DNA from: Eubacteriales bacterium
Lineage (GTDB): Bacteria > Bacillota > Clostridia > Oscillospirales > CAG-272
Assembly (NCBI GenBank): GCA_045644805.1
Contig: JAZRHO010000043.1
Location: 4,193 to 68,192 of the forward strand
Direction: 5' to 3'
DNA: 64,000 bases
Below are positions 6,492 through 27,659 of the stretch, piece by piece. Each line of letters starts with the position of its first letter. The stretch's first letter is position 1. A model generated the notes under the pieces. That model saw nothing but the letters and a program-made list of their open reading frames with translations, searched no databases and had not been told where the DNA came from. A program made the position numbers and the translations under genes.

Positions 6492-6530
6492 CCGATAAGC
6501 AGCGCTCTTAAGTGCATTATCGGGGTTTTT
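6492..6530 (+). terminator. Hairpin plus U-tract between rpmH and rnpA
   Basis: ccgataa...ttatcgg followed by ttttt. Confidence 0.55.
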
Positions 6531-6564
6531 GTTTAATAAGGATTTTCACTTTGCGGAGGCAAAA

Positions 6565-8820: not shown

Positions 8821-8846
8821 GCTTGACAAAAAAGAAAGGCATTATT

Positions 8847-9917: not shown

Positions 9918-9918
9918 T

Positions 9919-11316
9919 ATGGTATTTGCTACAACCATTGCAGCAATCTCAACCCCACCCGGAAAGGGTGGGGTTGCGGTTATAAGAATATGCGGCAAAG
10001 ACGCGCTTTTTATATGTGATAAAATGTTTTTACCAAGAGGGGCGTCGGTGCTTAAAGATAAACCGAGATTTCAGATATATGGAGATATTCTTTATCAAGG
10101 CGAAGTTATTGATGACGGTCTTGCAACCTATTTTCCGGCTCCCAATTCATACACGGGTGAGGATATTGTAGAGATAAGCTGCCATGGAGGTATGCTTATT
10201 TCACGTATGGTATTGGAATCTGCGCTGATTTGCGGCGCATCATTGGCGGCTCCCGGTGAATTTACAAAAAGAGCGTTCGTAAACGGAAAACTTTCGCTTA
10301 CGGAAACTGAAGCCGTAGCTTCGCTTCTTGAAGCTGAAAGCGATTGGCAGGTAAGGCTATCAAGACCTTCTTCACGTACGAAGCTTGCTTTTCGCATTGC
10401 TGAAATAAGGGAAGAGCTTACATCTGTTCTTTCTTCTATATATGCGCGCATAGACTATCCCGATGAAGATCTCGGAGAGCTTACAGATAAAGAAATTATG
10501 GATTTGATATCCGTCTGCATGTGCTCGATAAGTAAACTTATGTTGACATATAAAACAGGAAGAGCTGTAAACGAAGGCATTAACACTGTTTTGTGCGGCA
10601 AACCTAACGTTGGAAAAAGCACACTTTATAATCTTTTGCTTGAAGAAGATGCCGCTATTGTTACAAATATTCCGGGTACAACACGTGATGTGCTTGAAAA
10701 GCGAATATCTCTCGGAAAAGTAATGCTGAAGCTTTTTGATACGGCGGGTATAAGAGATGATGTTAAAGATACTGTAGAATCAATAGGAATAAGTCGTTCG
10801 CGTGAAAAAATAGATTCGGCAGACCTTATATTTGTTCTGTTTGATTCGTCAGGAGAGCTTGATGAAGAGGACGAAAAAATACTTGAGTATGTAGATAAAA
10901 AATCCGCTGCGAAGGTAGCCGTTATTACAAAATGCGATTTAGCTGAAAAAAAGAATGAAAAAATGCGCTCCTACCTTTCAGAGCGCGGTTTCGAGTATAT
11001 CCTTGAAATATCCGCAAAACGTGACGGTGATGACGCAAGAGAATTACTCGCAAGGCTTTGCGATAATCTTTTTATTGATGAAAAAATAAAAATTGGAGAT
11101 GACGCTGTCATATCCTCGGCGCGCCAATATGCTGCTCTTGTAAAGGCATCGGAATTTTTGAGGACGGCATACGATGCCTATTCTATCGGACTTCCGTCAG
11201 ATGCTGCGAGTTCAGATATAGAGCTTGCTTTGGGTGCGATATCCGAGCTTGACGGACGCGCTGTAAGCGAGACTGTTGTTGCGGATATTTTTTCAAAGTT
11301 TTGCGTGGGAAAATAA
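9919..11316 (+). CDS. mnmE: tRNA modification GTPase
   Basis: TIAAISTPPG, GKPNVGKS, DTAG and C-terminal FSKFCVGK. Confidence 0.97.
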   Translation: MVFATTIAAISTPPGKGGVAVIRICGKDALFICDKMFLPRGASVLKDKPRFQIYGDILYQGEVIDDGLATYFPAPNSYTGEDIVEISCHGGMLISRMVLESALICGASLAAPGEFTKRAFVNGKLSLTETEAVASLLEAESDWQVRLSRPSSRTKLAFRIAEIREELTSVLSSIYARIDYPDEDLGELTDKEIMDLISVCMCSISKLMLTYKTGRAVNEGINTVLCGKPNVGKSTLYNLLLEEDAAIVTNIPGTTRDVLEKRISLGKVMLKLFDTAGIRDDVKDTVESIGISRSREKIDSADLIFVLFDSSGELDEEDEKILEYVDKKSAAKVAVITKCDLAEKKNEKMRSYLSERGFEYILEISAKRDGDDARELLARLCDNLFIDEKIKIGDDAVISSARQYAALVKASEFLRTAYDAYSIGLPSDAASSDIELALGAISELDGRAVSETVVADIFSKFCVGK

Positions 11317-13318: not shown

Positions 13319-13353
13319 GAGGGTAGCTCAAGTTCAAAACTTGAGCTACCCTC
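13319..13353. terminator. Hairpin closing the phage-like operon (convergent genes)
   Basis: gagggtagctcaagtt-caa-aacttgagctaccctc, perfect 16-bp stem. Confidence 0.8.
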
Positions 13354-13375: not shown

Positions 13376-14212
13376 TTATTTCACTCCATTCGAGATATAA
13401 GCTTCAATAATATTCGCCTTGGTCTCCATCCACAGAGATAAAGAGTGCTTGGAGTATGAATAACCTGCGCTGTAACCGCGGAAGCCTATAATAGGCAAAG
13501 CAGAGAGCTTCAGAATACCGTTTAGGACATCCGATAAGGTCATACCGTCTTTTGCGCTTAGCATGACAGATACCGTTACAGTCATGCAAATTGTAGAGGG
13601 TATCATTTTCAAAAGAAGTATCGGAATTTTTCTTTTGTCCGGATTTTCAAGCTCGCTTCGCCCGGAATCGCGTTCGCGGCTGAGAAGAGTTTTAACGTTC
13701 AAGTTCGCGGGCTTTATTCTTTGCGCGCGTCGAAGAGCCTTAAGACTTTTTTTATCAAATTTTTTGCCGTTTTTATATTCTTCAATTGATTTAAGCGATA
13801 ACCCGTGTGAAAAAAGAATTGAGTTTTTTCGTGATTGTGCTTCACGCTCGGCATAGCTTTTGCAAAATGCGCGCAGACTTTCGATATCTTCGCCTTTGAT
13901 AAGGGAACGAACGTTATCGTACCGGTCCTTGGCACGCATATATTCTTCTGTTTCCGTGCCGCTTCGTTCTCCGGCGTCTTCAAGAGAAAAATATATTATG
14001 TATGAGGAAGTCATTAAAAGAAGTAACGTGCCTAAAAATTCTTCGGTTATAAATCCTGTAAAGCTTATATCGGTGAACGTTACGGCAATCATAACAATTG
14101 CGACGACTGCCGCTATAAGCTTACCCATATTGTCAATTGCCGTTTTTGTAACCTTCTTCATAAGCTCTTCGGAATCAAGAAGCTTGTCCTCAAAGTCGGA
14201 AAAGTTTTTCAT
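13376..14212 (-). CDS. Hypothetical membrane protein (about 4 TM), last gene of the phage-like operon
   Basis: Two TM pairs flanking a basic soluble region; overlaps the upstream gene by 4 nt. Confidence 0.7.
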   Translation of the reverse strand: MKNFSDFEDKLLDSEELMKKVTKTAIDNMGKLIAAVVAIVMIAVTFTDISFTGFITEEFLGTLLLLMTSSYIIYFSLEDAGERSGTETEEYMRAKDRYDNVRSLIKGEDIESLRAFCKSYAEREAQSRKNSILFSHGLSLKSIEEYKNGKKFDKKSLKALRRAQRIKPANLNVKTLLSRERDSGRSELENPDKRKIPILLLKMIPSTICMTVTVSVMLSAKDGMTLSDVLNGILKLSALPIIGFRGYSAGYSYSKHSLSLWMETKANIIEAYISNGVK

Positions 14213-14571
14213 TTGTTTGTATCGCCTGCCATTCTTGAAAGCTTAAAGAATATCGCTGCTAAAGCATTTGAAATAAAACCGATAAAGGATATGACCGTCA
14301 TTTCATCTGCTATTTTTGAAAGAGTGAAAAAAAGAATAAAAATTATAAGCCAAATCGACCATACCGCAGGGGAAGAGAATATGCGTTTAAGCATTTTCCA
14401 CAGCGGAGACACGCATATAAGAAGCAAAAGAAGAGTAAACCCCGAAACGGCCGCACCTTCGCCTCTTTCAAGCCAAAGGGGGAAATAAGAAAGAGTTGCC
14501 AAGGTAACCGGGATGACCGAGAGGGCAAAGCCTATTAAGAAAAACAGGATTTTTTTAGTCCTCAATGTCAA
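14209..14571 (-). CDS. Small 4-TM membrane protein (holin-like size and position)
   Basis: 120 aa, almost entirely hydrophobic, TTG start. Confidence 0.6.
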   Translation of the reverse strand: MTLRTKKILFFLIGFALSVIPVTLATLSYFPLWLERGEGAAVSGFTLLLLLICVSPLWKMLKRIFSSPAVWSIWLIIFILFFTLSKIADEMTVISFIGFISNALAAIFFKLSRMAGDTNK

Positions 14572-15214
14572 GGTTAACCTCTCCTTCCGAAAGCTCTGCT
14601 TTCATCGCGCTTATTTTTTCTCCGACACGGTCTTTTAGATATTGAGGAAGAGTTGCGGACATAAATATTTCATATAACATTTCTATTTCTGTGAGAAGCA
14701 CTGCTTTTAAGCTCTCACTTTTTGCGAGGACTTTTTCTTTTTCTTCCTTTGACTCGTAAAGCTGTATGGCTATCTTTTCAAGCTTTGTGACAATTTCTTC
14801 TGTGCTTTGCAGCTTTTGCGTTAATTCATTTGAGATTCTCTTTGAATCCGAGCCGATATTTTCAGTTTTTTCGCCAATGCTTTTTACACCGGAAGAAAGA
14901 GCGGATAAGGCTTCCTTAATAAGCGGTATAAGCCCCTTCTTGTAGCAAAGCATAATTATTATAGAGCCAATAAAGGCTAATGCCGAAAGAATCTGAGGAC
15001 TGTTTTCTAAAAAAGTGTTGAAAATAACGCTATACGGATTTTCCGTATCCGTATTCTCTAAAGGTTCATTCGGGGCGACCGAATGTTCTTGTCTAGTATC
15101 TTCGCTTATGTCTGTAGCTTCTGCGCAAAACGCTGAAAACGGAAGCACGAACACAAGTGATATTGCTAAAAGAATAATGACAGAAGCCTTTTTAATTGTT
15201 TTTTTGTGTTTCAT
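14555..15214 (-). CDS. Signal-peptide + TM + coiled-coil protein
   Basis: Basic/hydrophobic N-terminus ending SAFCA, internal TM ILSALAFIGSIIIMLCY, heptad-rich C-terminus. Confidence 0.7.
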   Translation of the reverse strand: MKHKKTIKKASVIILLAISLVFVLPFSAFCAEATDISEDTRQEHSVAPNEPLENTDTENPYSVIFNTFLENSPQILSALAFIGSIIIMLCYKKGLIPLIKEALSALSSGVKSIGEKTENIGSDSKRISNELTQKLQSTEEIVTKLEKIAIQLYESKEEKEKVLAKSESLKAVLLTEIEMLYEIFMSATLPQYLKDRVGEKISAMKAELSEGEVNLDIED

Positions 15215-15229
15215 AAAATCTCCTTTATG

Positions 15230-15658
15230 TTATGAAAATGTAAATAATTCTTTGTTTTTTACCTGCTCTTCCAGCAATAATATTGATTTTTCCAGCTTGG
15301 AGATTTTTTCATCAAGCTTAGTTATCGCGGTGAGAATTTTATCAAAATCCGTTTCGCTCGAAGAAATTCTTGAAACTTCGGATTCTTCAAAAAGGAATGG
15401 GGAGAGAGAATAGGTTTTATTTTTGCAGATAAGGCATGGAGATAATACACCTTCTTCAAGCTTTGCCTTTTCTATCTTGCAGCTTCCGTCTTTTAATTCA
15501 AACGTACGCTTTCCTAACGCAATCTTGCCTGAAAATGACGGAGGAAGTAAAAACATAATACTGGACTCTCCCAACGCGCTTTTTATCTTTGAGAGAAGAA
15601 ACATGGGTTTATCAGAAAAAAGTCCCGAACTTATGTATTTATAAATTAGTGAAGTCAT
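15230..15658 (-). CDS. Hypothetical protein with C-terminal coiled coil
   Basis: AAAGGA RBS, in operon, C-terminal heptads. Confidence 0.65.
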   Translation of the reverse strand: MTSLIYKYISSGLFSDKPMFLLSKIKSALGESSIMFLLPPSFSGKIALGKRTFELKDGSCKIEKAKLEEGVLSPCLICKNKTYSLSPFLFEESEVSRISSSETDFDKILTAITKLDEKISKLEKSILLLEEQVKNKELFTFS

Positions 15659-15672
15659 AAAAATTCCTTTCT

Positions 15673-16821
15673 TTAAGCGTATTCTGCGTAAAACTTACGT
15701 GGTGCAACATCGGTAAGGACTTCTATCGTGGTCATTCCTTCGCGGTACGGGATGCTTACAGAGGTCTGCTCGTATTCAGCATTTTGCAAAACATAAGTAA
15801 ATGCCATAGGGGTAGAGGTTAAATATTCACGAAGCGTATCTTTATCGGTGAATAAATTCGTATCCTTTAAATAAACGTAAGTTCCGTCATCTCCCTCGGC
15901 TATACCGCACTCGGCATCTGTAAGCTCGGAAAGACTTAACTTTTCGTAAAGCGATATAAAGCTTGATTTTTTACGCATAGGTTTTGAAAGGAATATTTTA
16001 AATATACCTTCGATGTCGCTTTCTTCTATCCCTGTCTCTGCGTTAAAGTATACAGAATTTATTTTTCTTTTTATAATACCTGCGGATAAATCAAACTCGT
16101 CCATGCTGTTTCCTATTCTTAGCAGTGGTTTTTCGATGAGTATTTCTGTGTTCTCGCCGTCGTATTTTTCAAACACACTATTAAAGTCGGTATGCTTACC
16201 TTCAAAAATTCCGAATTCAACAATCGAAATTCTGACGAACATATAAGAGTCTGCATCAGATGAAATAGATACGATAGTTTTTCCTTCTTCGCTGGGAATA
16301 CAATAATAAAATCTATAGTCTTTTGTTGGTATTCTCATTTGACTTGAAGTTCCATCCGAATAATCAAAGCAAATACCGAAATTTCTATCTGTGAATGAAG
16401 TGTTGCTATACCAAAAATAAGCGCACAGACTGTATACCGTGTTCTCTTTGAAGCGTATTTTGCTTTTATCGAGAAATACAGTTCCGTCTTTCTCAGCGTT
16501 GTAAATAGCCGTATAATACGTGTCACTTAAGGTTGTGCTGTTAGTCACTCCTGCATTCATATGGGCATTGGCATAGTCTATTCCGCTTAAAACGTTTTTT
16601 CCGTGGCACCGTAAGGCAATCTTATACTTTCCTGTCTCTTCGTCGTAATTGCCGACACCGTATACCTCTGCCGAAGGCCCGAGTGTATAGTTCCCAAACA
16701 TTTTTATCGTGCTCACCGTGTCAGAGCTTGCCTTTGCCGGAAGCTCAAGAATGTAATCACCGTTTTTTCGATGAAGCCAATTCTCGGTTTTCTTTATAAG
16801 CTTTGATACATCCTTACGCAT
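15673..16821 (-). CDS. Putative tail fibre/receptor-binding protein
   Basis: Position after the nozzle; beta-rich aromatic composition; GKN...YD...DE.D...G.IKR..FTYVL pattern seen in Firmicute phage fibre-associated proteins. Confidence 0.5.
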   Translation of the reverse strand: MRKDVSKLIKKTENWLHRKNGDYILELPAKASSDTVSTIKMFGNYTLGPSAEVYGVGNYDEETGKYKIALRCHGKNVLSGIDYANAHMNAGVTNSTTLSDTYYTAIYNAEKDGTVFLDKSKIRFKENTVYSLCAYFWYSNTSFTDRNFGICFDYSDGTSSQMRIPTKDYRFYYCIPSEEGKTIVSISSDADSYMFVRISIVEFGIFEGKHTDFNSVFEKYDGENTEILIEKPLLRIGNSMDEFDLSAGIIKRKINSVYFNAETGIEESDIEGIFKIFLSKPMRKKSSFISLYEKLSLSELTDAECGIAEGDDGTYVYLKDTNLFTDKDTLREYLTSTPMAFTYVLQNAEYEQTSVSIPYREGMTTIEVLTDVAPRKFYAEYA

Positions 16822-17497
16822 TTGGCAAACCCCTCACCACTCCTTGCACGTCACCGTCATACCAAAGGAATATAGTATAATGAGTATTATCCTTTGGCAA
16901 AAGCTCTTCGTCAGCTACGTCATCTCCGGAAAGACGTATTTTTGACAATGTACTGAATACCGTCGCATCTTCTCCGGAATCAAAGCTGAGTTCAGAATAG
17001 TACTCGTTTTTTAATTCTTCGGGAAGTGATATTACGAGCTCCTTAAGAGTTCCGAGGCGGTATATTTTCGCATTTTCCATTATGATTTCGCAACTGTCGG
17101 TAATTACCGTTTTCGGAAGACTTGAGATAGCGTCATCGGTTTTTTTCATCTTTTCCTCGAGATTGATAATATATTCAGAAAGACTTTCTTCGCCAAGAGA
17201 TAATATTTCGGCAAAAGCTCCGTTGGTTATATCTTCAAAAAGCGATGCCAGAGTGTGACCGTCATAAAGTCCGGTAGGAAGTGATGATGCGAGTGAATTT
17301 TCGCCGGTTGATGAAATGTCATCGAGGAGCGTGTTAAATTTTTCGATAATAAATAAAGGTAATTTGTCAAACGCTTCCTTCATATCCTTTGCCGTATATC
17401 CGCGACCGCCAAAGGCAGAGGGTGCGGTAGGGCGCGAGGGAAGAGAGGCGATTTTCAAATCGGATATTTCCGAATCAAGTATTTTTTTTGTATTCAT
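16814..17497 (-). CDS. Hypothetical tail-associated protein
   Basis: In operon; N-terminal SLPSRP...YTAKDMKEAFDKLP segment; function inferred from position only. Confidence 0.55.
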   Translation of the reverse strand: MNTKKILDSEISDLKIASLPSRPTAPSAFGGRGYTAKDMKEAFDKLPLFIIEKFNTLLDDISSTGENSLASSLPTGLYDGHTLASLFEDITNGAFAEILSLGEESLSEYIINLEEKMKKTDDAISSLPKTVITDSCEIIMENAKIYRLGTLKELVISLPEELKNEYYSELSFDSGEDATVFSTLSKIRLSGDDVADEELLPKDNTHYTIFLWYDGDVQGVVRGLPNA

Positions 17498-17515
17498 TTT
17501 TGTCCTTTCAAGATT

Positions 17516-20236
17516 TTATCTGCATTTTTTTATTTTTCCCTTGATGGCAAATCTGTAAGCAATTGTGTAAATGCCGAATGGGGAAGCATATTCATCGGTA
17601 TAAAGTGTGATTTGCTTTTCGACCCATCCTTTGGCTTTTTCGGATATGGGAATGGTATAAATGTCACTTGTGGTAAGGCAAAGAGATGAAAAATCCATAT
17701 CGGCAAAGCTCAAATCTCTGTTAGGGAAGGTGCATATCTCGGAATATCCGTCTTTTTCTGTTCCTACTTCGCAACGGATGTGCCCCGAAGCCACAGCCCG
17801 ACATTTTAAGGTTAGAGAATGCTTGACCGTGTTTTTCAAAAGGTGCGGTATTCCGCAATTGTCCTTCGCAGTTTTTACAGCGTATCTTGGAGCATGCCCT
17901 GCAAATGAATAATAATAATGATGAATACGTCTGCCGAATGCGCTGGTGTAGTCATCTGCGTCATAATCGGACGAATCTGTAACGCTCGGCGGAGCTATGC
18001 CTCGTTTGTCATTATTGAAGACGTAAATGCAGCCTTTGCTTGTTGAAAAGAACAAAAGATCTCCAACGCTCAGAATATGTGTTGCGGGATAAAAGCTTCC
18101 TTTCGTTTTTTCTTCCGTAGGATAGACCTCGTAATTTATACCGTTATCAGTTACGTAATAAATATATTCCTCTCCGTTGTATGCGCTTATAACTTCTCCG
18201 TTTGCAATCGTGTCGCACTTTTCATGAACCGTATATCCCTCGTGTGCAAAAGAGGCATATCTGTAAACGGTCTCATCATCCTTGTAAGTGCCAATACCCG
18301 AAAGGAAATACCATTCGTATTCCGGGTTGCCTTCTTTGCCCGTAAAGATATCTCTTGAATCTGCAAGATAAATATTACCCCCGACTGCAACAACGAGATA
18401 TCCCCGCCACACGGCAAGCTTGGCTGATGCTATATCCTCCGTCAAAAATTTAGGGTTAATATTGTTTGAACGGGTAACGATACTTCTTTCAAGATTTATG
18501 GCTTGCTTTTCAAATGCTGATATACCTTTTTCGCTGATAAATATGGGATCATCAAAAAATGATATTGAAGCTCCTTTTGCGCAAAAACCGTGATGTGTAT
18601 AGGAGACAGGATATATTTTTGGCATAATATCGCTGTTTGCAGACCAGGGAGTGTGGTAGAAAATACTTCCTGCCCCATCATCGGCTTCTTTAAATACCGC
18701 GAGTGAATCGCTCGTTCTTAACATTGATATTACATTGATATTTCCGGCACCGTCGCGAAAATAATTAAGCTCTCCGAAATAAAGAGGGTTGCTTTCACCG
18801 TTTTTATCAAAAGAAGAATAGAAAACATAGCCGGGATAATAGGGGTTTCCCGAAAGAAAAACTCTTCCGTCAAATATTGCGGCAACCCTGCATTTGCTTA
18901 TTATTTCATTTACATCGCAATTTGCGGTTGAATGAACTGATTTTATAAATCCATCCCATCTCAATTCATAGTATTGAGGCAATGAAGTGAGAATTCCTTG
19001 GAAAATCAAGGTTTTTCCTTCTGCATCGGCCCTGTCATCAAGTGAGATTTTCAGCATTGAGCATAATCCGTCTTGCGTTATCGTTTTATACGCAATATCC
19101 TGACCGTCAAGCTTTACGTTTTCAATACCGATACAAGGATTGTTTATAGGTATTCCAATTACGGCAGAATTATTGCTTACGTTATAAGAAACGGTTATAG
19201 AACCGAGAGAGTTTGTGTTTTTGACAAGGGCAAAATCAGTTTGGCTGCCGGCGTATGTTATGCATTTAAGCTCATAGCAGGTGCTGACTGTATTCAGTCC
19301 TAAATCGGAAAGACCGAGTCCTAGGTGCAATGCATTAAGAACAGAACATCCGGAAAAGACCGCATCTCCAAGTTTGTATACCGAATCGGAAAAAATAACG
19401 GAAGTTAAAGATGTGCAATCGGAGAAAGCCATAGCACCGATTTCCGATACACCGTTAGCAATAATACATTCTTTTATAACTGTATTTTTCGCAAATGCGG
19501 AGGCACCTATTTCGGTTACTGTATAATACTCATCGCCTATCTTTGTTTTTGAAGGAATACAAAGCTGAGTTTCAAGCTCGTTGTCTATACCCGTCACCTT
19601 GCAGTATTTCTTTTCCTCGTTAGTGATAACGTATTTAAGTCCGCGGCTTCCGTAAGAAACTGATTCGCAGGATCCTATAACGTATTTTTCATAAAAAAGT
19701 CTGGTCAAAAGATTCCGCTGCTCGGCTTCTATTCCGTTTATATGAGTTGTGGGTATATATATGCCGCCATCCGTGTCGCTTATTTCACCTCGATAGGAGG
19801 AAGAGAGCTTGAAAATTTTAAAGCCGTCAAGTATGTATATTGCATCTCCGAAGACGAAGGATGTGCTTTTTTGGTGATTGATTCCGCTTGTGACTGTATA
19901 ATTTTCAATAGAATCAATATCATTCTTTTTGAATTCATATAGCTTATTCAGTATGTGCGCAACTATTATTTCATCTCCGGATTCGTTTTTGTATGAATAC
20001 AGACCGTTGCATGACGCACCAAAATCCGCAATCTTCCTGTATCCGGGTATGCTTTCGATAATTCCGGCTCCGTCGCCTTCATAATCACGGTACATATTTT
20101 CAAGGTAAGAAAAGCGTTTCCTTGAAATGTTTGAGCCGTCACCTGAAAAATCAACTCCGCCCATACCCGAATAAATAACGCTGTATTCCGATTTTGAGAG
20201 AAAATTGTTTTTACTGATAGAATTCATTTCGCCCAC
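17516..20236 (-). CDS. Putative podoviral tail nozzle/stabilisation protein with inserted BspA-type LRR domain
   Basis: N-terminal GMGGVDFS...ENMY, AIFDGRVFLSGNP and propeller-like repeats; internal IGASAF/IGAMAFSDCTSLTSV/LGDAVFSGC repeats. Confidence 0.65.
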   Translation of the reverse strand: MGEMNSISKNNFLSKSEYSVIYSGMGGVDFSGDGSNISRKRFSYLENMYRDYEGDGAGIIESIPGYRKIADFGASCNGLYSYKNESGDEIIVAHILNKLYEFKKNDIDSIENYTVTSGINHQKSTSFVFGDAIYILDGFKIFKLSSSYRGEISDTDGGIYIPTTHINGIEAEQRNLLTRLFYEKYVIGSCESVSYGSRGLKYVITNEEKKYCKVTGIDNELETQLCIPSKTKIGDEYYTVTEIGASAFAKNTVIKECIIANGVSEIGAMAFSDCTSLTSVIFSDSVYKLGDAVFSGCSVLNALHLGLGLSDLGLNTVSTCYELKCITYAGSQTDFALVKNTNSLGSITVSYNVSNNSAVIGIPINNPCIGIENVKLDGQDIAYKTITQDGLCSMLKISLDDRADAEGKTLIFQGILTSLPQYYELRWDGFIKSVHSTANCDVNEIISKCRVAAIFDGRVFLSGNPYYPGYVFYSSFDKNGESNPLYFGELNYFRDGAGNINVISMLRTSDSLAVFKEADDGAGSIFYHTPWSANSDIMPKIYPVSYTHHGFCAKGASISFFDDPIFISEKGISAFEKQAINLERSIVTRSNNINPKFLTEDIASAKLAVWRGYLVVAVGGNIYLADSRDIFTGKEGNPEYEWYFLSGIGTYKDDETVYRYASFAHEGYTVHEKCDTIANGEVISAYNGEEYIYYVTDNGINYEVYPTEEKTKGSFYPATHILSVGDLLFFSTSKGCIYVFNNDKRGIAPPSVTDSSDYDADDYTSAFGRRIHHYYYSFAGHAPRYAVKTAKDNCGIPHLLKNTVKHSLTLKCRAVASGHIRCEVGTEKDGYSEICTFPNRDLSFADMDFSSLCLTTSDIYTIPISEKAKGWVEKQITLYTDEYASPFGIYTIAYRFAIKGKIKKCR

Positions 20237-21072
20237 CCCGTGACGTCGGAATAATGGGAATTTATGTTTTTAGGCACCGTAAAACTCATTCTTCCAGATT
20301 CCTCGTGATATATCTGCATATAATAGGATGCCTTTTCGGCATCGTCGTCAAGCCAGATATAAGCCGCAGTCAGAATAGGACATAAATGCTCACATCTTTT
20401 GGGTACGTCTATGTCGGCATCGCGCTCATCAATACTCAATGCCTTCGGCAGGCCTTTGTATGATATAAAAACTTCTCCAAAGAAGGATGACGGCAAAGTT
20501 AGAATGTTACCGAGTATTTTCGCTCCTTCAATTGGATTTCCATTTTTGTCATAAGGAGAGCGCGTTGCATAAAGAAAGTTAGAAATAAAGTCGGTTATGG
20601 TGTATTCCGATGTATCTTTTATAATTGGTATATCATTCTCTGATTCGGATCTTACAGAGGAAAACGCATATAAATCCAAAATTGTAAAAGCAGTATCTGA
20701 AAAGAATGTAAGTGTGGCTTCTTCTCCGCTTATAAATCCGCGTATGTTCACCGTTCCGCAAGAGAATGAACGGCTTTTTGTACCGCTTGAATCCTTTATG
20801 CTGCAAGAACCCTTTCCGTAAACTCTGAAGCTGTATGCAACGGCGGGGGGAAGCTTAATAACAATGTCATTGCCTGGGGTGTACTCGTATGACGAAAGAT
20901 GAAATACCGTATTATGTTTAGGAACAAAAACAATCCCGGTTTTCTCGTCGGCATGCTCGTTGTTTATAAATCTTATTGCTCGGTTGGCAGAGAAAATAAA
21001 ATCTTCGCTGAGTTCTGTAGCTTCTTCGAATCCGAGGGCATATGTTTCGGATAAAAGTTGGTTTAATGTCAT
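20224..21072 (-). CDS. Putative head-to-tail adaptor
   Basis: Follows MCP; helical N-terminus MTLNQLL..ANRAI and C-terminal IDVP...L.P...A..IWLDDD..KASYYM..Y. Confidence 0.55.
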   Translation of the reverse strand: MTLNQLLSETYALGFEEATELSEDFIFSANRAIRFINNEHADEKTGIVFVPKHNTVFHLSSYEYTPGNDIVIKLPPAVAYSFRVYGKGSCSIKDSSGTKSRSFSCGTVNIRGFISGEEATLTFFSDTAFTILDLYAFSSVRSESENDIPIIKDTSEYTITDFISNFLYATRSPYDKNGNPIEGAKILGNILTLPSSFFGEVFISYKGLPKALSIDERDADIDVPKRCEHLCPILTAAYIWLDDDAEKASYYMQIYHEESGRMSFTVPKNINSHYSDVTGWAK

Positions 21073-21111
21073 AAGAACTCCTTAAAATTATTATAATGAA
21101 AACTATAGTTT

Positions 21112-21149
21112 GCAAAAGGGCTGGTTTTGTAAAAGTGCAGCCCTTTTGC
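21112..21149 (-). terminator. Internal hairpin just downstream of the major capsid gene
   Basis: gcaaaagggctg...cagcccttttgc 12-bp inverted repeat 6 nt after the MCP stop. Confidence 0.75.
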
Positions 21150-21155
21150 TGCTTT

Positions 21156-22211
21156 TTAAAGCGCTTCTGCTTCGGATACAGCTGTTGCCGAATCTACTGC
21201 GAGAAGGATGTGTTTATAAGTTCCAAAACCTACACCGAAACGGCATCTGCCGCCCCAAATATAGTTTCCTGTGTGATGATCTACCCAGTTTGATACAGTA
21301 AGGGGAACGCGATTGAAGAACATATTACCGGAAAGGTTCTTATTAGCCTCAGACGACATAATCATGAGTCTGTCATCGTTCGTCTGCCAGTTGGGCATAA
21401 CGATAATATTCCAGTTGCCGTACTGAAGGTTAATATCGTTATAACCGTTTCCAAGCGCGCCTTCCGAGCCGCAAACCTTCTTTGCTACCGCTTCAGCGAG
21501 AGGACGGTTGCCGGGAAGAATAATAGTATCAGCGGTATAACCTAGCACCTCACCGTTTTCGTCCTTCATATTGCGGAGCTTGACTGCAAGCTCACCGAGT
21601 GCCTCTTCAAATACAGCGGTTGTTGCACGCCGTCCGTCAGTACCCGTGCCAAAAATATCACCCCAGAAATAATTGGATTGAGTAGAGAGAGAATTTCCTA
21701 TTCCGTATGTATGATTGGCAGAGAAGAGCGCAAGGCCGTCGGGGGCTGTAAGATCAAGATTTGCCTTTGCAAAGGTGCCGGTAGTTTTCGTACCGTTTGA
21801 AAGAGCATATTCGCATATCTTATGCATTGTTTTGTAATAGGCGCGGGTGAAGTTTTCCGCGCGGCGCTTTGCGTCTTGAGCAACGCCGTAATTAGCGTCC
21901 TCCATCATTTCGGCTGTGATAGTGAATTCCTTCATGAACTGAATGTGCTCAATGAATTTGCGGTAGGTCTCCGAAATGGTGTCGTTTTCGCCGCCTGCGC
22001 CTTCTGCTGCTGCTCTGAACACATCAAATTCGTTCTGACCTATGATGGTTTCACCAAATTTGTTACTGCGTTCAACGTTAAAGAGCCAGTCACAGATACC
22101 GCCCTTTTTAGTCTGCATATCGCTTTCGTGCTCGATTACCATTTTGATGGGCGTTTCAAGCTTGCCTACAGCGCTGTTTGCAAGACCTGAAGATTTAGAA
22201 TAAATTATCAT
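21156..22211 (-). CDS. Major capsid protein (Mu gpT-like/HK97 fold)
   Basis: 351 aa after scaffold and decoration genes; FTITAEMMED, DGLALFSANH, ADTIILP and GRCRFGVGF motifs. Confidence 0.8.
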   Translation of the reverse strand: MIIYSKSSGLANSAVGKLETPIKMVIEHESDMQTKKGGICDWLFNVERSNKFGETIIGQNEFDVFRAAAEGAGGENDTISETYRKFIEHIQFMKEFTITAEMMEDANYGVAQDAKRRAENFTRAYYKTMHKICEYALSNGTKTTGTFAKANLDLTAPDGLALFSANHTYGIGNSLSTQSNYFWGDIFGTGTDGRRATTAVFEEALGELAVKLRNMKDENGEVLGYTADTIILPGNRPLAEAVAKKVCGSEGALGNGYNDINLQYGNWNIIVMPNWQTNDDRLMIMSSEANKNLSGNMFFNRVPLTVSNWVDHHTGNYIWGGRCRFGVGFGTYKHILLAVDSATAVSEAEAL

Positions 22212-22229
22212 ATAAAATCCTTTCCTTAA

Positions 22230-22634
22230 TTAAAATTTAACCGTTATGTTATTTCCTGCTTCGATAACATCGTTTATCTCAGCTATTGTGGCGACACCGG
22301 ATGCAGTGGTTGCCGTAACATAAGCTGCACAGCTGTCACTGTCAAAATCAAGAGTAACCTTGTCGCCTGCTTTAAGAGCAGCAGGATCTGCATTTACTTT
22401 TGTTTCAAACAGCATATTAGGATATATCTCATAGCAGAGAATCTTTTTTTCTTCAAGAGCTGCGTTCTCAAGTGCAATATGTGTAGGAGTTTCGGTAGCA
22501 CCGGCAGACTGAACTATGCCGTTTTTGAGAATGAGAGCTGTCCCGATATTAATTTTTGCAGAGGTATTTTTACTCATTTTTACAGGTTCGGGAACGTTAA
22601 CTCCCGTATTTTGAATTTTTATAAGCTTAAACAT
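22230..22634 (-). CDS. Putative capsid decoration/cement protein
   Basis: 134 aa, Ala/Thr/Val-rich beta-type, between scaffold and MCP. Confidence 0.6.
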   Translation of the reverse strand: MFKLIKIQNTGVNVPEPVKMSKNTSAKINIGTALILKNGIVQSAGATETPTHIALENAALEEKKILCYEIYPNMLFETKVNADPAALKAGDKVTLDFDSDSCAAYVTATTASGVATIAEINDVIEAGNNITVKF

Positions 22635-22646
22635 ATTGTTCCTTTC

Positions 22647-23141
22647 TTATTTTGTGACTTTTTTATATAGCTTTTGAATGTCTCTGTCTGAAAGGTCAGA
22701 GAATATCATTCGCGCGGCTTCCAGATCGCTGCTTGAAAGCACATCCTGAGAGGAGGAAGCTCCGCGCGGAGCTGAAGCGGTAATATGGCTTCGGTTGTCA
22801 TAAACCATTCCTATATCAGAGCAGGCGAGGTAAGCTTCCTTCGGAGAAAGACCGAGATCTCTTAAAGCCGCATAACGAAGAGGATTATCGAGCTCGCGTA
22901 TGCTTGTCTTTCCGCTAAGGTGAGGAAATAGCGAGAGTAGCTCCTGCATATCTTTACGCATTATTTCTTCGTAATCCTTAGCGCCGACAAAGTCCTCACA
23001 TGAATCCTTCCCTTCTATATCGGAAGCGGTACTGTCTGCAGATGAATCCGATGTTTCTATAATAACGCTTTCGGATTTGTTGTTCTCATGTAAAACGGTA
23101 TCGTTTTCGAGGTTTGTCAATTGCTCTGTCTTTTCACCCAT
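22647..23141 (-). CDS. Putative capsid scaffolding protein
   Basis: Acidic disordered N-terminus, helical core (GLSPKEAY) and C-terminal helix hairpin; upstream of MCP. Confidence 0.6.
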   Translation of the reverse strand: MGEKTEQLTNLENDTVLHENNKSESVIIETSDSSADSTASDIEGKDSCEDFVGAKDYEEIMRKDMQELLSLFPHLSGKTSIRELDNPLRYAALRDLGLSPKEAYLACSDIGMVYDNRSHITASAPRGASSSQDVLSSSDLEAARMIFSDLSDRDIQKLYKKVTK

Positions 23142-23145
23142 AGCG

Positions 23146-23277
23146 TTAGCCTCTCTTCACTCTTAAGTCGTTGCCTTCACGTTTTGTCGCGCGGGGATCG
23201 TCCTTTGATGCGGACTTGGGACTTTCAATTTTGCCGCCCTTGTTAGTTGCATAAGGTGAGTATTTCTTTTCTTTCAT
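23146..23277 (-). CDS. Small basic 43-aa protein (below the ORF-track cutoff)
   Basis: AAAGGA RBS; MKEKKYSPYATNKGGKIESPKSASKDDPRATKREGNDLRVKRG fills the gap between its neighbours. Confidence 0.75.
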   Translation of the reverse strand: MKEKKYSPYATNKGGKIESPKSASKDDPRATKREGNDLRVKRG

Positions 23278-23297
23278 TGTAAAAATCGTCCTTTCGT

Positions 23298-24005
23298 TCA
23301 GTTAGATGATTGTGATAAAATATAATCGTAATATTGGTCAGCGCTCATAGATGCAAAGTATTCTTTTTCGCCTTCGTTATAAACAGACATTGCTTTATAA
23401 ACCTTTTCGGCATAGAATTCCGAGAGCCCTAACGACAGCGCGTATTTTTTTGCCTTGTAAGCGCTGAGGGAATTTAGCTTTGCGAAGGAAATTGCGCGTT
23501 CAATGGTATTGTTTAGTGCGGCATCTACACCCTTTGTGGCAGCATACATAGCGTAGTTTTCATTAAGGCCGGCAGAAACGGCCTCTTTGTATGCATCCTC
23601 AATGCTAAAGTTATTACCCTTACCGAATGAATCTATAAATCCTTGGCTGATTTCATTCTGCAGCTTTTCGTAATTCGTCAAATACTTTTCATACCCGGAG
23701 TTGTTTTTGTATTCCGAGGTTGCTTTTTCTCTTTCGGCAGCGTCCATTTTGTCGGAATATGTTTTGTAATTTTGAGCCGACAAATAATCTGCATATCCCG
23801 ATTTAGAAAGTCCTGAGGATGAAAGAGAGTCTGAAACGCTTCCTCTTTTTGAACTTGAAAGCTCTCTTGAAACTGCGGCATTTGCGGCAGAATCAAGATA
23901 ACTGTTTTTGTTTTTGATATCACTTTTTGCAAGGTATTGATTATAAGAGTCAGCCGCATTGCTTTTCAGTTTCTCGTCATATGATTTGGTTTGCTTCGAT
24001 TTCAA
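23298..24005 (-). CDS. Hypothetical protein, possible internal virion/ejection protein
   Basis: 235 aa, K/S/A/Y-rich and helical, L...GLSKSGYADYL segment; TTG start overlapping the portal gene. Confidence 0.55.
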   Translation of the reverse strand: MKSKQTKSYDEKLKSNAADSYNQYLAKSDIKNKNSYLDSAANAAVSRELSSSKRGSVSDSLSSSGLSKSGYADYLSAQNYKTYSDKMDAAEREKATSEYKNNSGYEKYLTNYEKLQNEISQGFIDSFGKGNNFSIEDAYKEAVSAGLNENYAMYAATKGVDAALNNTIERAISFAKLNSLSAYKAKKYALSLGLSEFYAEKVYKAMSVYNEGEKEYFASMSADQYYDYILSQSSN

Positions 24006-25704
24006 CCTTTTCTTCTCCTTTCATGAGATCTTGAAAATATTCTACATTATCCCTTGCATGAGGATAATGCGCCCTTTCCTGATATTGCCAGTAGCGAAGA
24101 AGGGTAGAGGGATCTGTGGGATCGCCGAGAGTGCCCGCCTTAAGATTTTCAAGATTCTTTTCCCAAAGTGCCTCTCTTTGATATCCACTTCCTCCATTCA
24201 GATCTACCGAGAACAAATATCCGTCATCGTATGAAAGCCTCTTTTCATTTGGGTTAAAGGAAAGAAATTCATAACGGTTGAAATACAAGTCGTGAATTCT
24301 TCCAAAGGAATCCTTATATGAAAGAGTACGTGGCTCATCCGCGAAAGCAAGATAGTGCTCGAAAATCAACCTGTCTATATGCGAGTAGGCTGTGTATTTC
24401 ATCTTTTTTTTAGATTCAAGCCTGCCGCCCGATTGAGAAATTCTCAGCTGACGCGCATAGCCTGATTCATTTGTAGAGCCTCCGATTCCTTGGTATGCGT
24501 CGGTTATGCCGAGTATGCGCTTTGAGTGCTCATATAAACGCTCTGCTTCGGTAATATCCTGTGAGATGTCGGGGGTCGTGTCGACTTTTCCATACTGTGC
24601 CATGGTTTCGCCGGGCTTCATTTTTATTATTTGACCGAATACCGAGTTGTTAAGGCTGACAGTAGCATCCTCAGGCACGATGGGCGTTATTCCGGCGCGA
24701 AGGAGTTTTTGCAGAATTCTTGACTCGATCTTGTTTATTGCTTGTTGCTCCGGGCGTATGTATTCGCAGTCCGACTGACCGAGCAAGGAATTTTCTGCTG
24801 AAGTGTTTTTTCTTATGACTATCGGGAATTTCTTCGGTGTGTAATAAGGAACACGGAGTGCCTTTGCGGAGTTATCCGGAACTATATACTCAAAATCAAC
24901 GTTCTTCATTATGAAAGTACGTTTACCTTCGCATTGGCATAAGTTTTCTGTTCTTTCGCATTTTTTGCAAACTTTTATTTTCCTTTTGTAGTAATTTTCC
25001 AGATCGAGAAGAGTCAATGCTCCTGAAAAAACGAATTTTCCTACATCGCCGTTTTCGTCTCGGTAAAAACAAACTATAAGATTTACTGTGTCACCTCCGT
25101 CAAAGAAGCCCTCTTCACTTTCGCAGTCCATAAGATAAATATCTTCATCCTTTATGCCGTAAGTATTGCAAACTTCGGTTCGGGTTGTTGTGAACTTTAG
25201 AAAGCAGTATTCCATATTTTCAATATCGAATATGTTAGGTTGAGGAATGAAGTTTTTTGGAGAAATAACTTTTGCTTCAGCTCCTCCTGTCACCATTCCC
25301 GTTTTCAGAGCGTTATTCCATTCTACAAGCCAAATACTTCCGCCGTAAATATACGTATATCTCTCATCCAGGTCATTAAGCTCCTCAAAAGGAAGTCTGT
25401 CGCGAAGTGAACGGCAAAGCGATTCTATAACCTGCGCTTGTCTTTCTCTTTTCTCGCTATACGAATCGGCGTCTGTTTTCGGCATAGGTATATCCGAGGA
25501 TATTTGGCTTTCTATTATTTCGTATGTGATATTTCTCACCGTAAGCGCCTCTTCCTTGCCTCCGTCGATTTCTTTTGAACCCTTGTACTGACGCATATAT
25601 TTGTCAAGCTTTTCAAGTGTATCGGCATAGTAGGTTTTCGCATTCTCGTATAGCGAACGGAAAAACTCAAGGCGTGCGGTGCCGTTTTTCTTTTCTGTTT
25701 TCAA
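23977..25704 (-). CDS. Phage portal protein (podoviral-type)
   Basis: 575 aa directly after TerL; F.PQP, LGQSD.E.IRP.Q.AIN and GITDAYQG...ESG.A patterns. Confidence 0.8.
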   Translation of the reverse strand: MKTEKKNGTARLEFFRSLYENAKTYYADTLEKLDKYMRQYKGSKEIDGGKEEALTVRNITYEIIESQISSDIPMPKTDADSYSEKRERQAQVIESLCRSLRDRLPFEELNDLDERYTYIYGGSIWLVEWNNALKTGMVTGGAEAKVISPKNFIPQPNIFDIENMEYCFLKFTTTRTEVCNTYGIKDEDIYLMDCESEEGFFDGGDTVNLIVCFYRDENGDVGKFVFSGALTLLDLENYYKRKIKVCKKCERTENLCQCEGKRTFIMKNVDFEYIVPDNSAKALRVPYYTPKKFPIVIRKNTSAENSLLGQSDCEYIRPEQQAINKIESRILQKLLRAGITPIVPEDATVSLNNSVFGQIIKMKPGETMAQYGKVDTTPDISQDITEAERLYEHSKRILGITDAYQGIGGSTNESGYARQLRISQSGGRLESKKKMKYTAYSHIDRLIFEHYLAFADEPRTLSYKDSFGRIHDLYFNRYEFLSFNPNEKRLSYDDGYLFSVDLNGGSGYQREALWEKNLENLKAGTLGDPTDPSTLLRYWQYQERAHYPHARDNVEYFQDLMKGEEKVEIEANQII

Positions 25705-27062
25705 ATTGGTTCTCCGTATTTACGTTTTAGATATTTTCTCTCACTCTCGCACGCACCGTTATAATCTTCCCACATATCGGAAGTCCATCTCGTGTATTTA
25801 AGCTTGTAGGTTGGTTTTGACGGACGGGTATAGAATATAGCAAATCCTCTAAGAGCATCAGGGGCGTGTGTTATTTCATGAGGCTCGTTTGCGCAGTCTG
25901 ATGGACGAAGCTTGTCGACCGTCAAAGCGGGCAAGCATTTTATAAGCTCTCTGCAAGTTGAAAATATTTTCAGTCTTGGTTCGGTATCTTTTATTTGCAG
26001 TAACTCCTTGATAGCAAGCCATCCGGTTTCGCGCTCATTTGAAGTTTTTGTAAAATTGACACCGTGTTCAGAAAATATTGATGCTTTTGTTTTTCCGGTT
26101 TCCTGCGTGCGGGAAAAAAGGTCGGGGGGAGCTAAGGTTGCGTATATATCCTCTGATTGCGGTGTTCTTTCGCACATGGCCTTAGCGGCTGCGCTGATCG
26201 GTAAATTCGACTCGCAAAACTCGCGATACACTACCACACGGCATTCAGGACTCACGGCTATCCAAAGGCACACAAATCTATCAAGTCCATAGTCAATTGT
26301 TCGGTATTTGCGCCAAGAGGCGGGAATCTCAAAGGGATGGCATATATGCCTTTCATTGAATTCGTTAAAATACTGACCCTCAAAAATATTCCAATCACCG
26401 TAAAGAAGAGCTTTTCTTTCTCGTTCGGGCAGAGCAAGCAATCGGTTTTTATACTCCGGATCCGACTTAGAAAGAAAAGAGTTGTCATCGAGGAATGAAG
26501 GAATAAATACTCTATCCATGCCATTGCTTGAATAAAATTTTGTTCCTGCAGGTGCCGGATCAATGAATCTGGACTTAACCCACGAATGACCGACACCGCC
26601 GGGATTTGTAGATGATTTTATTTGTTTTGGATATCCGTTCGCGCCTCTTACGCGAGAGATGAGATAGACATATTGCGCTTCGGTAAAGTGAGTAAGCTCA
26701 TCAAAACGTATGCAGTCATATTCTGCACTTTGATATTGATAAACGTCATTTTCCGTGGCGCAATAGCCAAAATCAATGCAGGAGCCGTTTTTGAATTTTC
26801 CCGTGTGGGAGGAGGAATTAAAGGAATAAATATCCTTTGGGAATATGGAAAGAGCCGTACGTATGAGAGATTTATCAAGCTCTGCGAAGGTACGCCTAAG
26901 AATAAGCTGCTTTGAGCGTGGAAATTTAAGAGCGAAGATGAATGCGTCAACCATCTGACCGTATGATTTGCCTCCGCCCGCAGCGCCTCCGAAAAGAACC
27001 TCCGATTCGGTAGCGTTCATAAAAAGCTGCTGCTTTTTTGTTACCGAAAATCTTATGTCCAT
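25701..27062 (-). CDS. Terminase large subunit
   Basis: Walker A GGAAGGGKS, Walker B IRFDE, coupling motif STNPGG, nuclease residues in IDYG and HAPDALR. Confidence 0.95.
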   Translation of the reverse strand: MDIRFSVTKKQQLFMNATESEVLFGGAAGGGKSYGQMVDAFIFALKFPRSKQLILRRTFAELDKSLIRTALSIFPKDIYSFNSSSHTGKFKNGSCIDFGYCATENDVYQYQSAEYDCIRFDELTHFTEAQYVYLISRVRGANGYPKQIKSSTNPGGVGHSWVKSRFIDPAPAGTKFYSSNGMDRVFIPSFLDDNSFLSKSDPEYKNRLLALPERERKALLYGDWNIFEGQYFNEFNERHICHPFEIPASWRKYRTIDYGLDRFVCLWIAVSPECRVVVYREFCESNLPISAAAKAMCERTPQSEDIYATLAPPDLFSRTQETGKTKASIFSEHGVNFTKTSNERETGWLAIKELLQIKDTEPRLKIFSTCRELIKCLPALTVDKLRPSDCANEPHEITHAPDALRGFAIFYTRPSKPTYKLKYTRWTSDMWEDYNGACESERKYLKRKYGEPI

Positions 27063-27397
27063 TATTCTTCCACCTTGATAGTTACCGAAATATCCTCATT
27101 GTTATTTATATCATCACTAACGCCAAACTCAATTCCGAGGAGAAATTTTACGAACGAGGGATCAAAGCGTCTTGTGAGCGCCGAGTCGGTAAGGTAATCC
27201 CTTCTGATTTCATTTGTTTCTTTCCATGCTTTGTCGAACTCTGTGTGCTTTCTGAAACTATTGAGATCCTCGACCGTAAAAGCTGTATGGCGTGCGAATT
27301 TCGATATACTTGGAATTTCTCCGTTGTTTATCGAATTGATATAAAAGGTATATAGGAGTCTCGGTAAATCCTTAGTATACTTTTTTCCTTGTTTCAA
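27062..27397 (-). CDS. Terminase small subunit (putative)
   Basis: 111 aa abutting TerL; HTH-like PSISKFAR, helical core and C-terminal beta strand ISVTIKVEE; AAGGAG RBS, TTG start. Confidence 0.72.
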   Translation of the reverse strand: MKQGKKYTKDLPRLLYTFYINSINNGEIPSISKFARHTAFTVEDLNSFRKHTEFDKAWKETNEIRRDYLTDSALTRRFDPSFVKFLLGIEFGVSDDINNNEDISVTIKVEE

Positions 27398-27545: not shown

Positions 27546-27554
27546 ATTATATCA
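27546..27554 (-). promoter_or_regulatory. Extended -10 promoter element for the phage-like operon
   Basis: TGATATAAT (TGnTATAAT) on the minus strand; -35 is weak. Confidence 0.55.
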
Positions 27555-27632
27555 AAAACACCGAAAAAAGTAAGTACAGTCGAAATACGAAAAAAATCTC
27601 TGAAAATTTCTTTTTATTTGTGAAATATAAAC

Positions 27633-27659
27633 AAAAAATCCCTTCTTTTCGAAGGGATT
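27633..27659 (-). terminator. Terminator of the ABC-F operon, insulating the phage-like operon
   Basis: aatcccttc...gaagggatt stem with a T-run on the minus strand. Confidence 0.75.

Follow-up and report, generated by a model that had tools for sequence, protein, structure and literature searches.

The window analyzed here, a stretch of 64,000 nucleotides (nt) from an Eubacteriales bacterium (GenBank assembly GCA_045644805.1, contig JAZRHO010000043.1, positions 4,193 to 68,192), holds a block of phage-type head, tail and membrane protein genes. We consider it probable, judging from the sequence, that this block is the remnant of a temperate short-tailed phage that was domesticated and has been kept as one host operon since before the genus diversified, and that it is a podovirus-like gene transfer agent (GTA), that is, a viriform. 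The domestication is well supported by gene content, the absence of autonomy genes, vertical inheritance and purifying selection. From the same genes we infer particle formation, packaging of host DNA, a release route and delivery. The genome holding the window is referred to as G000; other G labels denote genomes of relatives, and L labels denote fetched loci.

The block consists of 16 co-oriented open reading frames (ORFs), numbered g01 to g16 in the order of transcription, on the minus strand between window positions 13376 and 27397 (about 14 kb). The original prediction had described them as tightly packed, and all 16 were found where it had placed them. Arithmetic on the ORF coordinates gives overlaps of up to 29 nt and gaps of at most 83 nt between neighbours. 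The content is a small terminase (TerS), a large terminase (TerL), a portal, a scaffold-like protein, a major capsid protein (MCP), an adaptor-like protein, a structural protein of 906 amino acids (aa) with leucine-rich repeats (LRR), fibre-like genes and three membrane proteins. The ORFs, in window coordinates, are as follows.

27062..27397, minus strand: g01, small terminase, 111 aa (phrog_3064; PF16677 below the cut-off)
25701..27062, minus strand: g02, large terminase with ATPase and nuclease, 453 aa (phrog_979, PF03237)
23977..25704, minus strand: g03, portal with a four-Cys insertion, 575 aa (phrog_156)
23298..24005, minus strand: g04, 235-aa protein, possibly a minor head protein by position (no family match)
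23146..23277, minus strand: g05, 43-aa ORF (no family match)
22647..23141, minus strand: g06, 164-aa scaffold-like protein (by position only)
22230..22634, minus strand: g07, 134-aa head-associated protein, decoration candidate (phrog_24113)
21156..22211, minus strand: g08, MCP, 351 aa (phrog_371, tblastn)
20224..21072, minus strand: g09, 282-aa head-to-tail adaptor candidate (weak resemblance to N4 gp67)
17516..20236, minus strand: g10, 906-aa tail structural protein with a BspA-type LRR insertion (PF13306, phrog_3287)
16814..17497, minus strand: g11, 227-aa fibre or receptor-binding candidate (conserved N-terminal part, variable remainder)
15673..16821, minus strand: g12, 382-aa variable tail-end protein (no family match)
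15230..15658, minus strand: g13, 142-aa protein (no family match)
14555..15214, minus strand: g14, 219-aa membrane protein with 2 hydrophobic segments and a coiled-coil-rich tail (weak phrog_1009 match)
14209..14571, minus strand: g15, 120-aa membrane protein with 4 hydrophobic segments (weak phrog_27618 match)
13376..14212, minus strand: g16, 278-aa membrane protein with 3 hydrophobic segments (hydrophobic-segment scan)

All 16 products and both flanks were scanned with Pfam and PHROGs, and ten of the block proteins were also scanned with NCBIfam, where none of the ten had a match. These scans found no integrase, repressor, replication gene or primase in the block or its flanks, and no block product matched a tape-measure, tube or sheath family. 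The original prediction had listed these absences together with that of an endolysin from the block, and the scans of products and flanks agree with it. Its labels of TerS, TerL, portal and MCP were upheld by profile matches; the adaptor is weakly backed, and the nozzle, decoration and scaffold labels were left unconfirmed. Apart from TerS, TerL, the portal, the MCP and the 906-aa protein, the block products were without an informative family in Pfam, PHROGs and NCBIfam.

TerL, which is encoded by a single gene in G000, matched phrog_979 (E 4e-49) and PF03237 (E 1e-8). Residues that we read as Walker A and Walker B (DE), an SST motif and a pair of Asp are retained in 59-64 of the 64 aligned TerLs; the Walker motifs, coupling motif and nuclease aspartates claimed earlier for this protein would thus be kept. 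TerS matched phrog_3064 (E 1.8e-6) over profile positions 75-166 of 175 only, and PF16677 at E 2e-4, under the family cut-off. The portal matched phrog_156 (E 2e-31) and, weakly, P22_portal and SU10_portal. The MCP matched phrog_371 (E 1.8e-7), and tblastn aligned it at 22-25% identity over 84% of its length with annotated capsid proteins of PK1, 023Pt_psg01 and HTVC023P, the PK1 homologue being annotated as Mu gpT-like. No PDB sequence match was obtained for the portal or the MCP.

The block is widespread in the genus. An intact TerL without an internal stop was present in 34 of 36 other species genomes, as full-length matches of 61-79% identity; the two genomes without it (G009 and G022) are 72% and 76% complete. 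In 33 fetched loci the whole block is colinear wherever the contig allows, and host genes lie directly at its ends. Identity across these 33 genomes is 56-90% for the MCP, 60-79% for TerL, 49-68% for the portal and 21-58% for the tail and membrane proteins. The fibre-like and LRR proteins diverge fastest (22-58% for g09-g11 versus 56-90% for the MCP), and g07, g12 and g13 are variably present.

A species-wide profile scan with the MCP, with one genome per species for 185,579 species, gave 262 relatives. The best 80 of the 262, which are 74-91% identical, are the named loci to which all counts out of 80 refer. All but two of them are titled as metagenome-assembled genomes (MAGs), mostly of uncultured Clostridia, Eubacteriales, Oscillospiraceae and 'Ruminococcus sp.', and goat, sheep, deer, yak or buffalo gut sites appear in several of the titles. 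The gene order is colinear in 77/80 loci, and the remaining three share one circular permutation; the conserved order without an integrase that the original prediction proposed to look for was found across the genus. When ORFs cut by contig ends were excluded, full-length ORFs were seen for terS in 62/62 loci, terL in 60/63, the portal in 62/68, the MCP in 78/79, g10 in 71/71, g15 in 60/60 and g16 in 59/59, and the overall range per gene was 56-80 of 59-80. Within the order, the MCP profile matched 28/401 genomes, including 2/2 sampled members of the genus and 1/1 of another genus in the family; elsewhere in the order the matches were scattered and much weaker. All 14 matches in IMG/VR were short pieces of this block; host flanks accompany some of them, and no further phage module accompanies any. 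The closest INPHARED records were remote (MCP at most 28% identity, TerL at most 46%), so no autonomous phage in INPHARED is close to the block, a point on which the original prediction could have failed. The stretch itself occurs in three DNA gut-metagenome runs of one study, none of which is a virus-like particle (VLP) or RNA run.

The block is inherited with the host lineage and is under purifying selection. When identity to G000 was compared with that of the host helicase PcrA (n=27), the Spearman coefficient was 0.78 for TerL and 0.59 for the portal, and it was 0.84 for the host marker YgiQ. Normalised Robinson-Foulds distances were 0.60 between PcrA and TerL and 0.48 between PcrA and the portal, with 0.69 between PcrA and YgiQ and 0.99 for shuffled labels. 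Mantel r was 0.74 for TerL and 0.61 for the portal versus 0.49 for the host-marker pair. Trees of concatenated TerL and portal and of concatenated PcrA and YgiQ (27 genomes) had 13/24 splits in common, which was reached by 0/1000 label shuffles. The agreement of the TerL and portal trees with the host-marker trees is thus as good as that between two host markers, and the congruence of TerL with the host expected under the original prediction was observed.

Ratios of nonsynonymous to synonymous substitution (dN/dS) were calculated by NG86. For G019 versus G021 (dS 0.4-1.2; more distant pairs were saturated), they were 0.20 for terS, 0.06 for terL, 0.11 for the portal, 0.20 for the g04-like gene, 0.79 for the g05-like ORF (40 codons), 0.40 for g06, 0.08 for the MCP, 0.31 for g09, 0.19 for g10, 0.29 for the g11-like gene, 0.39 for g14, 0.10 for g15 and 0.21 for g16; the host flank genes gave 0.06-0.08. 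For G030 versus G036, TerL, portal and MCP gave 0.03-0.06; with the two pairs taken together, TerL is at 0.03-0.06 and the MCP at 0.04-0.08. Over both pairs the range is 0.03-0.40, well below 1 as anticipated, and the 40-codon g05-like ORF is the sole exception. Composition is host-like, as had also been expected: GC content is 40.9% in the block and 41.7% in the genome, and the codon-usage distance of the block is 0.042 versus 0.040 +/- 0.013 for random gene sets.

These data bear on the view that the block is a decaying, functionless prophage fragment kept by chance. Such a fragment could account for the missing autonomy genes and for the failure to find the block in G009 and G022; in G009, in which neither TerL nor MCP was found, the site after the ABC-F gene is occupied by a defence island (L277:7036-18538) in place of the block. 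Decay is nevertheless very improbable, because dozens of species, with host proteins of just 53-78% identity, retain 14-16 genes intact, the dN/dS values are low throughout with the exception just given, and the catalytic motifs are invariant. Recent transfer of one sequence is excluded by identities of 56-90%. The G009 island itself contains a 1570-aa fusion of an Eco57I-type methylase and a ResIII helicase, a 1183-aa unknown protein, a Thoeris ThsB TIR protein and TnpV.

The edges of the block are formed by host genes. On one side lie rnpA-yidD-yidC-jag-mnmE and genes for an RNHCP and a VWA protein, and on the other ABC-F, rluD, lspA, sepF and yggS. Between the stop codon of ABC-F and the start of terS lie 317 nt, close to the approximately 320 bp from the core yggS-sepF-lspA-rluD-ABC-F operon in the original prediction. 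Two control features frame the block.

27546..27659, minus strand: upstream control region with the ABC-F terminator hairpin and an extended -10 box
13319..13353, minus strand: terminator-like hairpin (16-bp stem) that separates the block from the convergent VWA gene

Within the 317-nt gap, the ABC-F terminator hairpin at 27659-27637 is followed by an extended -10 box, TGATATAAT, at 27554-27546, and then by a leader of about 150 nt and a strong ribosome-binding site (RBS), AAAGGAG. A TGnTAnAAT box precedes terS in 11/32 genomes. The box before terS may be the promoter of the block; of the own promoter claimed earlier, the -10 box and RBS are present and the function is presumed from them. The closing hairpin was likewise confirmed, with its 16-bp stem at 13353-13319 after the last gene. 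No tRNA was found at the block, a search for att sites found no direct repeat bracketing it, and Rfam gave no match in the window; the absence of a tRNA target and of att-like repeats noted earlier therefore holds. Separately, a strand switch between hpt (minus) and rnpA-yidD-yidC-jag-mnmE (plus) at window 5509-11316 coincides with a minimum of the cumulative GC skew at 5-6 kb. The replication origin is probably located about 7 kb from the block, and the block would then be transcribed head-on to replication.

The co-oriented ABC-F gene is the nearest upstream host homologue in 25/51 callable loci, and other junctions occur in small groups. By our own count, a host homologue lies at most 700 nt from terS in 38/48 non-permuted loci, which leaves no room for an integrase. 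In G035, G010 and G029, TerL shares a contig with YgiQ and PcrA at about 8-20 kb, as in the window. Mobility of the block was considered because of the varying flanks and was dropped because of the recurrent ABC-F junction and the agreement of the trees. As a separate observation, a DinG/XPD-like helicase gene (PF13307, PF06733) directly follows the last block gene in the same orientation in several loci (L024:15649-18057, L021, L035, L037, L066). It adjoins the block end in 8 of the best 80 loci, and its G000 homologue is on another contig.

One relative, G004, holds the block plus a second TerL (67% identical) and a second portal (42%). Upstream of terS in this second module are genes for a CI-like repressor, a RecE-like exonuclease, RecT, an ERCC4 nuclease, a primase and a primase-helicase. 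A matching MCP module lies on another contig (MCP profile E 8e-132), and homologues of g06, g07, g09 and g10 are present as well. The second module is apparently a complete temperate phage related to the block. In the best tree its TerL branches as the sister of the 33 block TerLs, weakly supported (48/63), and the ancestor probably resembled a prophage of this type. The module is located at L140:3309-11701, L028:1356-10788 and L169, and an insertion sequence (IS) transposase (phrog_506) adjoins the repressor. The presence of a full prophage in a relative tells in part against the original prediction, and the co-divergence of the block stands.

Several observations weigh against a domesticated GTA. 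The related temperate phage still circulates in the genus, so there may be some horizontal input. MCP distances do not follow those of the host (Spearman -0.28, Mantel r -0.16), with small clades recovered; this mismatch could be due to rate shifts or module exchange. About half of the species have the block at another chromosomal position. A circular permutation marks a small subclade (G014 and two named MAGs): the order g06-MCP-g09-g10-g11 ... g13-g14-g15-g16 precedes terS-terL-portal, host genes lie on both sides, and the arrangement could have arisen by tandem duplication and loss or by circularisation and re-insertion. The MCP profile matched 0/22 genomes of 12 further genera of the family. 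The family scans found no endolysin in the block, and the sole Amidase_2 of G000 sits in an unrelated prophage on contig C30; two Amidase_3 genes were unexamined. With regard to the MCP, it has changed much faster in some close relatives (56-59% identical in G026, G007 and G020) than in distant ones (78-81% in G011, G019 and G017). The permuted loci are L135:12587-19937 and L023:1436-7235 (G014), L206, L213 and L218.

Some of these observations would suit a defective prophage or satellite-like selfish element that depends on a G004-type helper phage for replication, lysis or mobility. The G004 prophage combines a full early region with the related TerL and portal and an MCP of the same family, its TerL groups as sister to the clade of the block, and the varying position of the block, the three permuted loci and the departure of the MCP tree from the host tree are compatible with such dependence. 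It is, however, quite unlikely in our judgment: the block and its immediate surroundings contain no integrase, primase, replication gene or att site, most species have a single copy per genome, and a helper-like second copy was found in 1/36 closely examined genomes (G004). In addition, TerL and the portal co-diverge with host markers, host genes abut the block, and the block has its own tail genes, unlike what is known of capsid-forming satellites.

The tail genes may specify a short tail. Residues 199-268 of g09 align to residues 145-219 of N4 gp67 in a PDB profile search (E 0.0037), and hhalign gives a probability of 61% (E 8e-5). N4 gp67 is a head-to-tail adaptor (PMC13434306). g09, which comes in two length classes among relatives, is thus a head-to-tail adaptor candidate with weak support, and hhalign found no similarity of it to N4 gp54 or T7 gp11. 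g10 matched PF13306 (BspA-type LRR, E 1e-14) and phrog_3287 ('virion structural protein', E 5e-6); the LRR insertion covers approximately residues 194-350, and PDB matches are restricted to the LRR part. A nozzle role for g10 found no backing in sequence: hhalign showed no similarity to T7 gp12 or N4 gp53. A short tail would fit the weak g09-gp67 match, the lack of any tape-measure, tube or sheath family and the lack of hydrophobic segments in g09-g13; the unlikeness of g10 to T7 gp12 and N4 gp53 does not speak for it. g11 had no family match in Pfam, PHROGs or NCBIfam. Its relatives match 27-88% of the query (27-56% in 13/14 loci) in ORFs of 116-1122 aa, a pattern usual for fibres in which the anchor is conserved and the receptor-binding part varies, which makes g11 a candidate fibre. 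g12 and g13, both without a family match, were detected in 15/80 and 44/80 loci, and nine variable tail-end ORFs of relatives had no Pfam match apart from LRR.

Hydrophobic segments are confined to the last three proteins, g14, g15 and g16 (2, 4 and 3, respectively), and there are none in g09-g13. g14 was detected in 63/80 loci, and g15 appears holin-like by size and topology. These three membrane proteins probably help release, perhaps as holin-like factors. A GH25 search of G000 (84% complete) found nothing. In the search for a separate lysis-type locus in G000, its Amidase_2 candidate proved to be part of the siphovirus-type prophage on C30 (L267, G000:C30:18391-21750). By size and N-terminal sequence only, other ORFs of this prophage look like a tape measure (754 aa), a large serine recombinase, two helix-turn-helix (HTH) repressors and single-stranded DNA-binding protein (SSB); it also encodes a small membrane protein.

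Taken as a domesticated GTA, the block would have originated when a temperate phage lost its early region and was kept by the host as an operon before the genus diversified. The operon would encode all parts for a DNA-filled head with a short tail. It may be switched on from its own promoter in a subpopulation of cells, in which procapsids would assemble. TerS and TerL would then cut and package whatever DNA is present, and that DNA would be the chromosome since the element cannot replicate or excise. Cells would release the particles, which may adsorb through the rapidly changing fibre and LRR proteins. The packaging ATPase-nuclease, the portal and the MCP are the most constrained products, an indication that the cells still make DNA-filled heads. 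Change is fastest in the proteins of the particle surface, which would be expected of particles that have to bind cells. With respect to the original prediction, the host-maintained, particle-only operon is borne out by the trees, dN/dS and gene order, and we continue to infer the packaging of host DNA.

It is also conceivable that the domesticated operon makes particles for another host purpose, such as PBSX-like killing, adhesion or a decoy function, with transfer absent or incidental. The evidence for domestication applies equally to this case, and the fastest divergence of fibre-like and LRR proteins (g09-g11) fits surface-targeting arms races just as well. For FpGTA, a GTA of Faecalibacterium prausnitzii compared below, the authors likewise leave a killer or other-purpose particle open (PMC12946183, Discussion). 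The TerL motifs and the portal are, on the other hand, the most constrained parts of the block, which indicates that DNA packaging itself is selected, and the family scans recognised no toxin-like or contractile component among the block products. We consider such a purpose unlikely.

The remaining head genes are less well defined. g06 lies directly upstream of the MCP gene and was detected in 80/80 loci; it has no family match, and its position suggests a scaffold. g07 matched phrog_24113 (function unknown) at E 4.5e-14 and was detected in 64/80 loci. g04 had no match in Pfam, PHROGs or NCBIfam and was detected in 67/80 loci, and the G004 prophage encodes a 613-aa relative of it. g05, also without a family match, was matched in 15/33 relatives (44-67% identity) and in 17/80 loci at E 1e-5. 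In the portal, C246, C249, C256 and C258 are nearly invariant across 21 portals; this four-Cys stretch (residues 246-258) suggests a zinc-ribbon-like insertion, which is unusual for portals. A 122-aa antisense ORF inside the MCP gene (window 21822-22190, plus strand) recurs in relatives. It was rejected as a gene, with dN/dS above 1 (e.g. 2.7-2.8), and is a by-product of MCP conservation.

In some other families of the order, the whole head module is shared and lies inside larger regions without G000 homologues. Three loci from other families (L030, L032 and L033) contain compact modules that have only TerL, g09 and g10 in common with the block. Each runs from terS and TerL through a small ORF to a portal (about 520-570 aa), a scaffold and an MCP (about 270-290 aa), and includes a g09-like and a g10-like gene. 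These modules may be prophages or further GTA-like elements.

The block provides a concrete candidate GTA cluster in another lineage of gut MAGs, and the genus also contains an ancestor-like prophage. Should the block be functional, genes would flow through gut communities by this route, and it would serve as a model of the conversion of a temperate phage into a particle owned by its host. No earlier description of this genus's element was found in titles and abstracts on GTAs in Clostridia or Bacillota or on podovirus-like or domesticated ones.

Among known elements, likeness to individual phages is remote and concerns few proteins. Bacillus phage PK1 has a TerL 39% and an MCP 25% identical to those of the block, Pelagibacter podophage HTVC023P has an MCP 22% identical, and gp67 of coliphage N4 resembles the g09 C-terminus; all three phages are autonomous and have 41-70 kb. 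The temperate phage in G004 has the same structural module and, unlike the block, carries an early region upstream of terS. Of the hallmarks of a temperate prophage, namely integrase, repressor, replication module and att site, none was found in the block; the prophages in G004 and on C30 of G000 appear to have them. Satellites resembling capsid-forming phage-inducible chromosomal islands (cf-PICI) have an integrase, a primase or replication module and capsid genes, and are not known to have tail genes. The block differs from them in lacking an integrase and a primase and in having adaptor-like, large tail and fibre-like genes.

GTAs outside Alphaproteobacteria are few. RcGTA is siphovirus-like and under the control of CtrA/GafA; it comprises about 15 kb and additional accessory loci, and it packages about 4 kb. 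The RcGTA genes have no detectable relation to the block genes. The likeness to RcGTA and other alphaproteobacterial GTAs is in having a phage-derived head-tail cluster without autonomy genes, co-evolution with the host and purifying selection (PMC9662315, PMC10883770, PMC6821227). Co-divergence, purifying selection and a shared junction are a type of evidence that has so far come mostly from alphaproteobacterial GTAs. PBSX of Bacillus subtilis is chromosomally fixed and defective, packages host DNA and carries repressor and lysis genes of its own; its tail is contractile. The block is like PBSX a chromosomal phage-like element of a Gram-positive host; unlike in PBSX, no contractile tail, repressor or lysis gene was recognised in it. 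PBSX is a killer particle (PMC12946183, Discussion).

The original prediction knew of no such system in Clostridia, a claim now superseded by FpGTA (PMC12946183) and a Coprocola candidate (bioRxiv 10.64898/2026.07.08.737213). The latter, from a gut MAG of Coprocola (Anaerotignaceae), has a 14-kb core cluster of terminases and structural genes. Like the block, it has a small and a large terminase and no integration or replication genes in this core; unlike the block, it adds a separate 3.6-kb holin/endolysin cluster and VLP coverage data. FpGTA of F. prausnitzii, described only in 2024-2026, is called by its authors the first podovirus-like GTA-like element (Borodovich et al., Nat Commun 2026; PMC12946183). 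Its operon I (10.5 kb) has the order terS-terL-portal-scaffold-MCP, and operon II (5.5 kb), about 125 kb away, encodes a baseplate, fibre, receptor-binding protein (RBP), holin and endolysin; the particles measure 40 nm and contain about 9 kb of host DNA each. The same paper reports GTA-like packaging in Oscillospiraceae, other Ruminococcaceae and Christensenellaceae, in which the gene clusters were not located.

The block shares with FpGTA a Clostridia host, the order terS-terL-portal-scaffold-MCP followed by short-tail genes, the absence of replication and integration genes, near-ubiquity in one genus and an inferred podovirus-like morphology. The particles, proteomics and packaged DNA of FpGTA are experimental, whereas the block is known from its genes and is compared with FpGTA by layout; no Faecalibacterium record is among the best 80 of the 262 loci, and these 80 are all close relatives. 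FpGTA has two operons, and the block is one 14-kb operon ending in three membrane proteins. The two-locus layout was not seen in G000 (84% complete), in which the tail-end and membrane genes belong to the single operon. A tentative possibility, which we hold to be doubtful but not remote, is that the block was domesticated separately from FpGTA. It would then be a self-contained, single-operon GTA of podovirus origin in which a membrane-protein release module replaces the endolysin, fixed beside ABC-F before an uncultured gut genus of >80 species radiated, and still exchanging head modules with temperate phages in the same hosts; such exchange would explain the MCP tree. If this is true, GTAs arose repeatedly in gut Clostridia, and the path from phage to host organelle could be traced in one clade with ancestor-like and domesticated forms. 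By this comparison, the block may be a new, possibly independent, member of the now-known podovirus-like kind of GTA.

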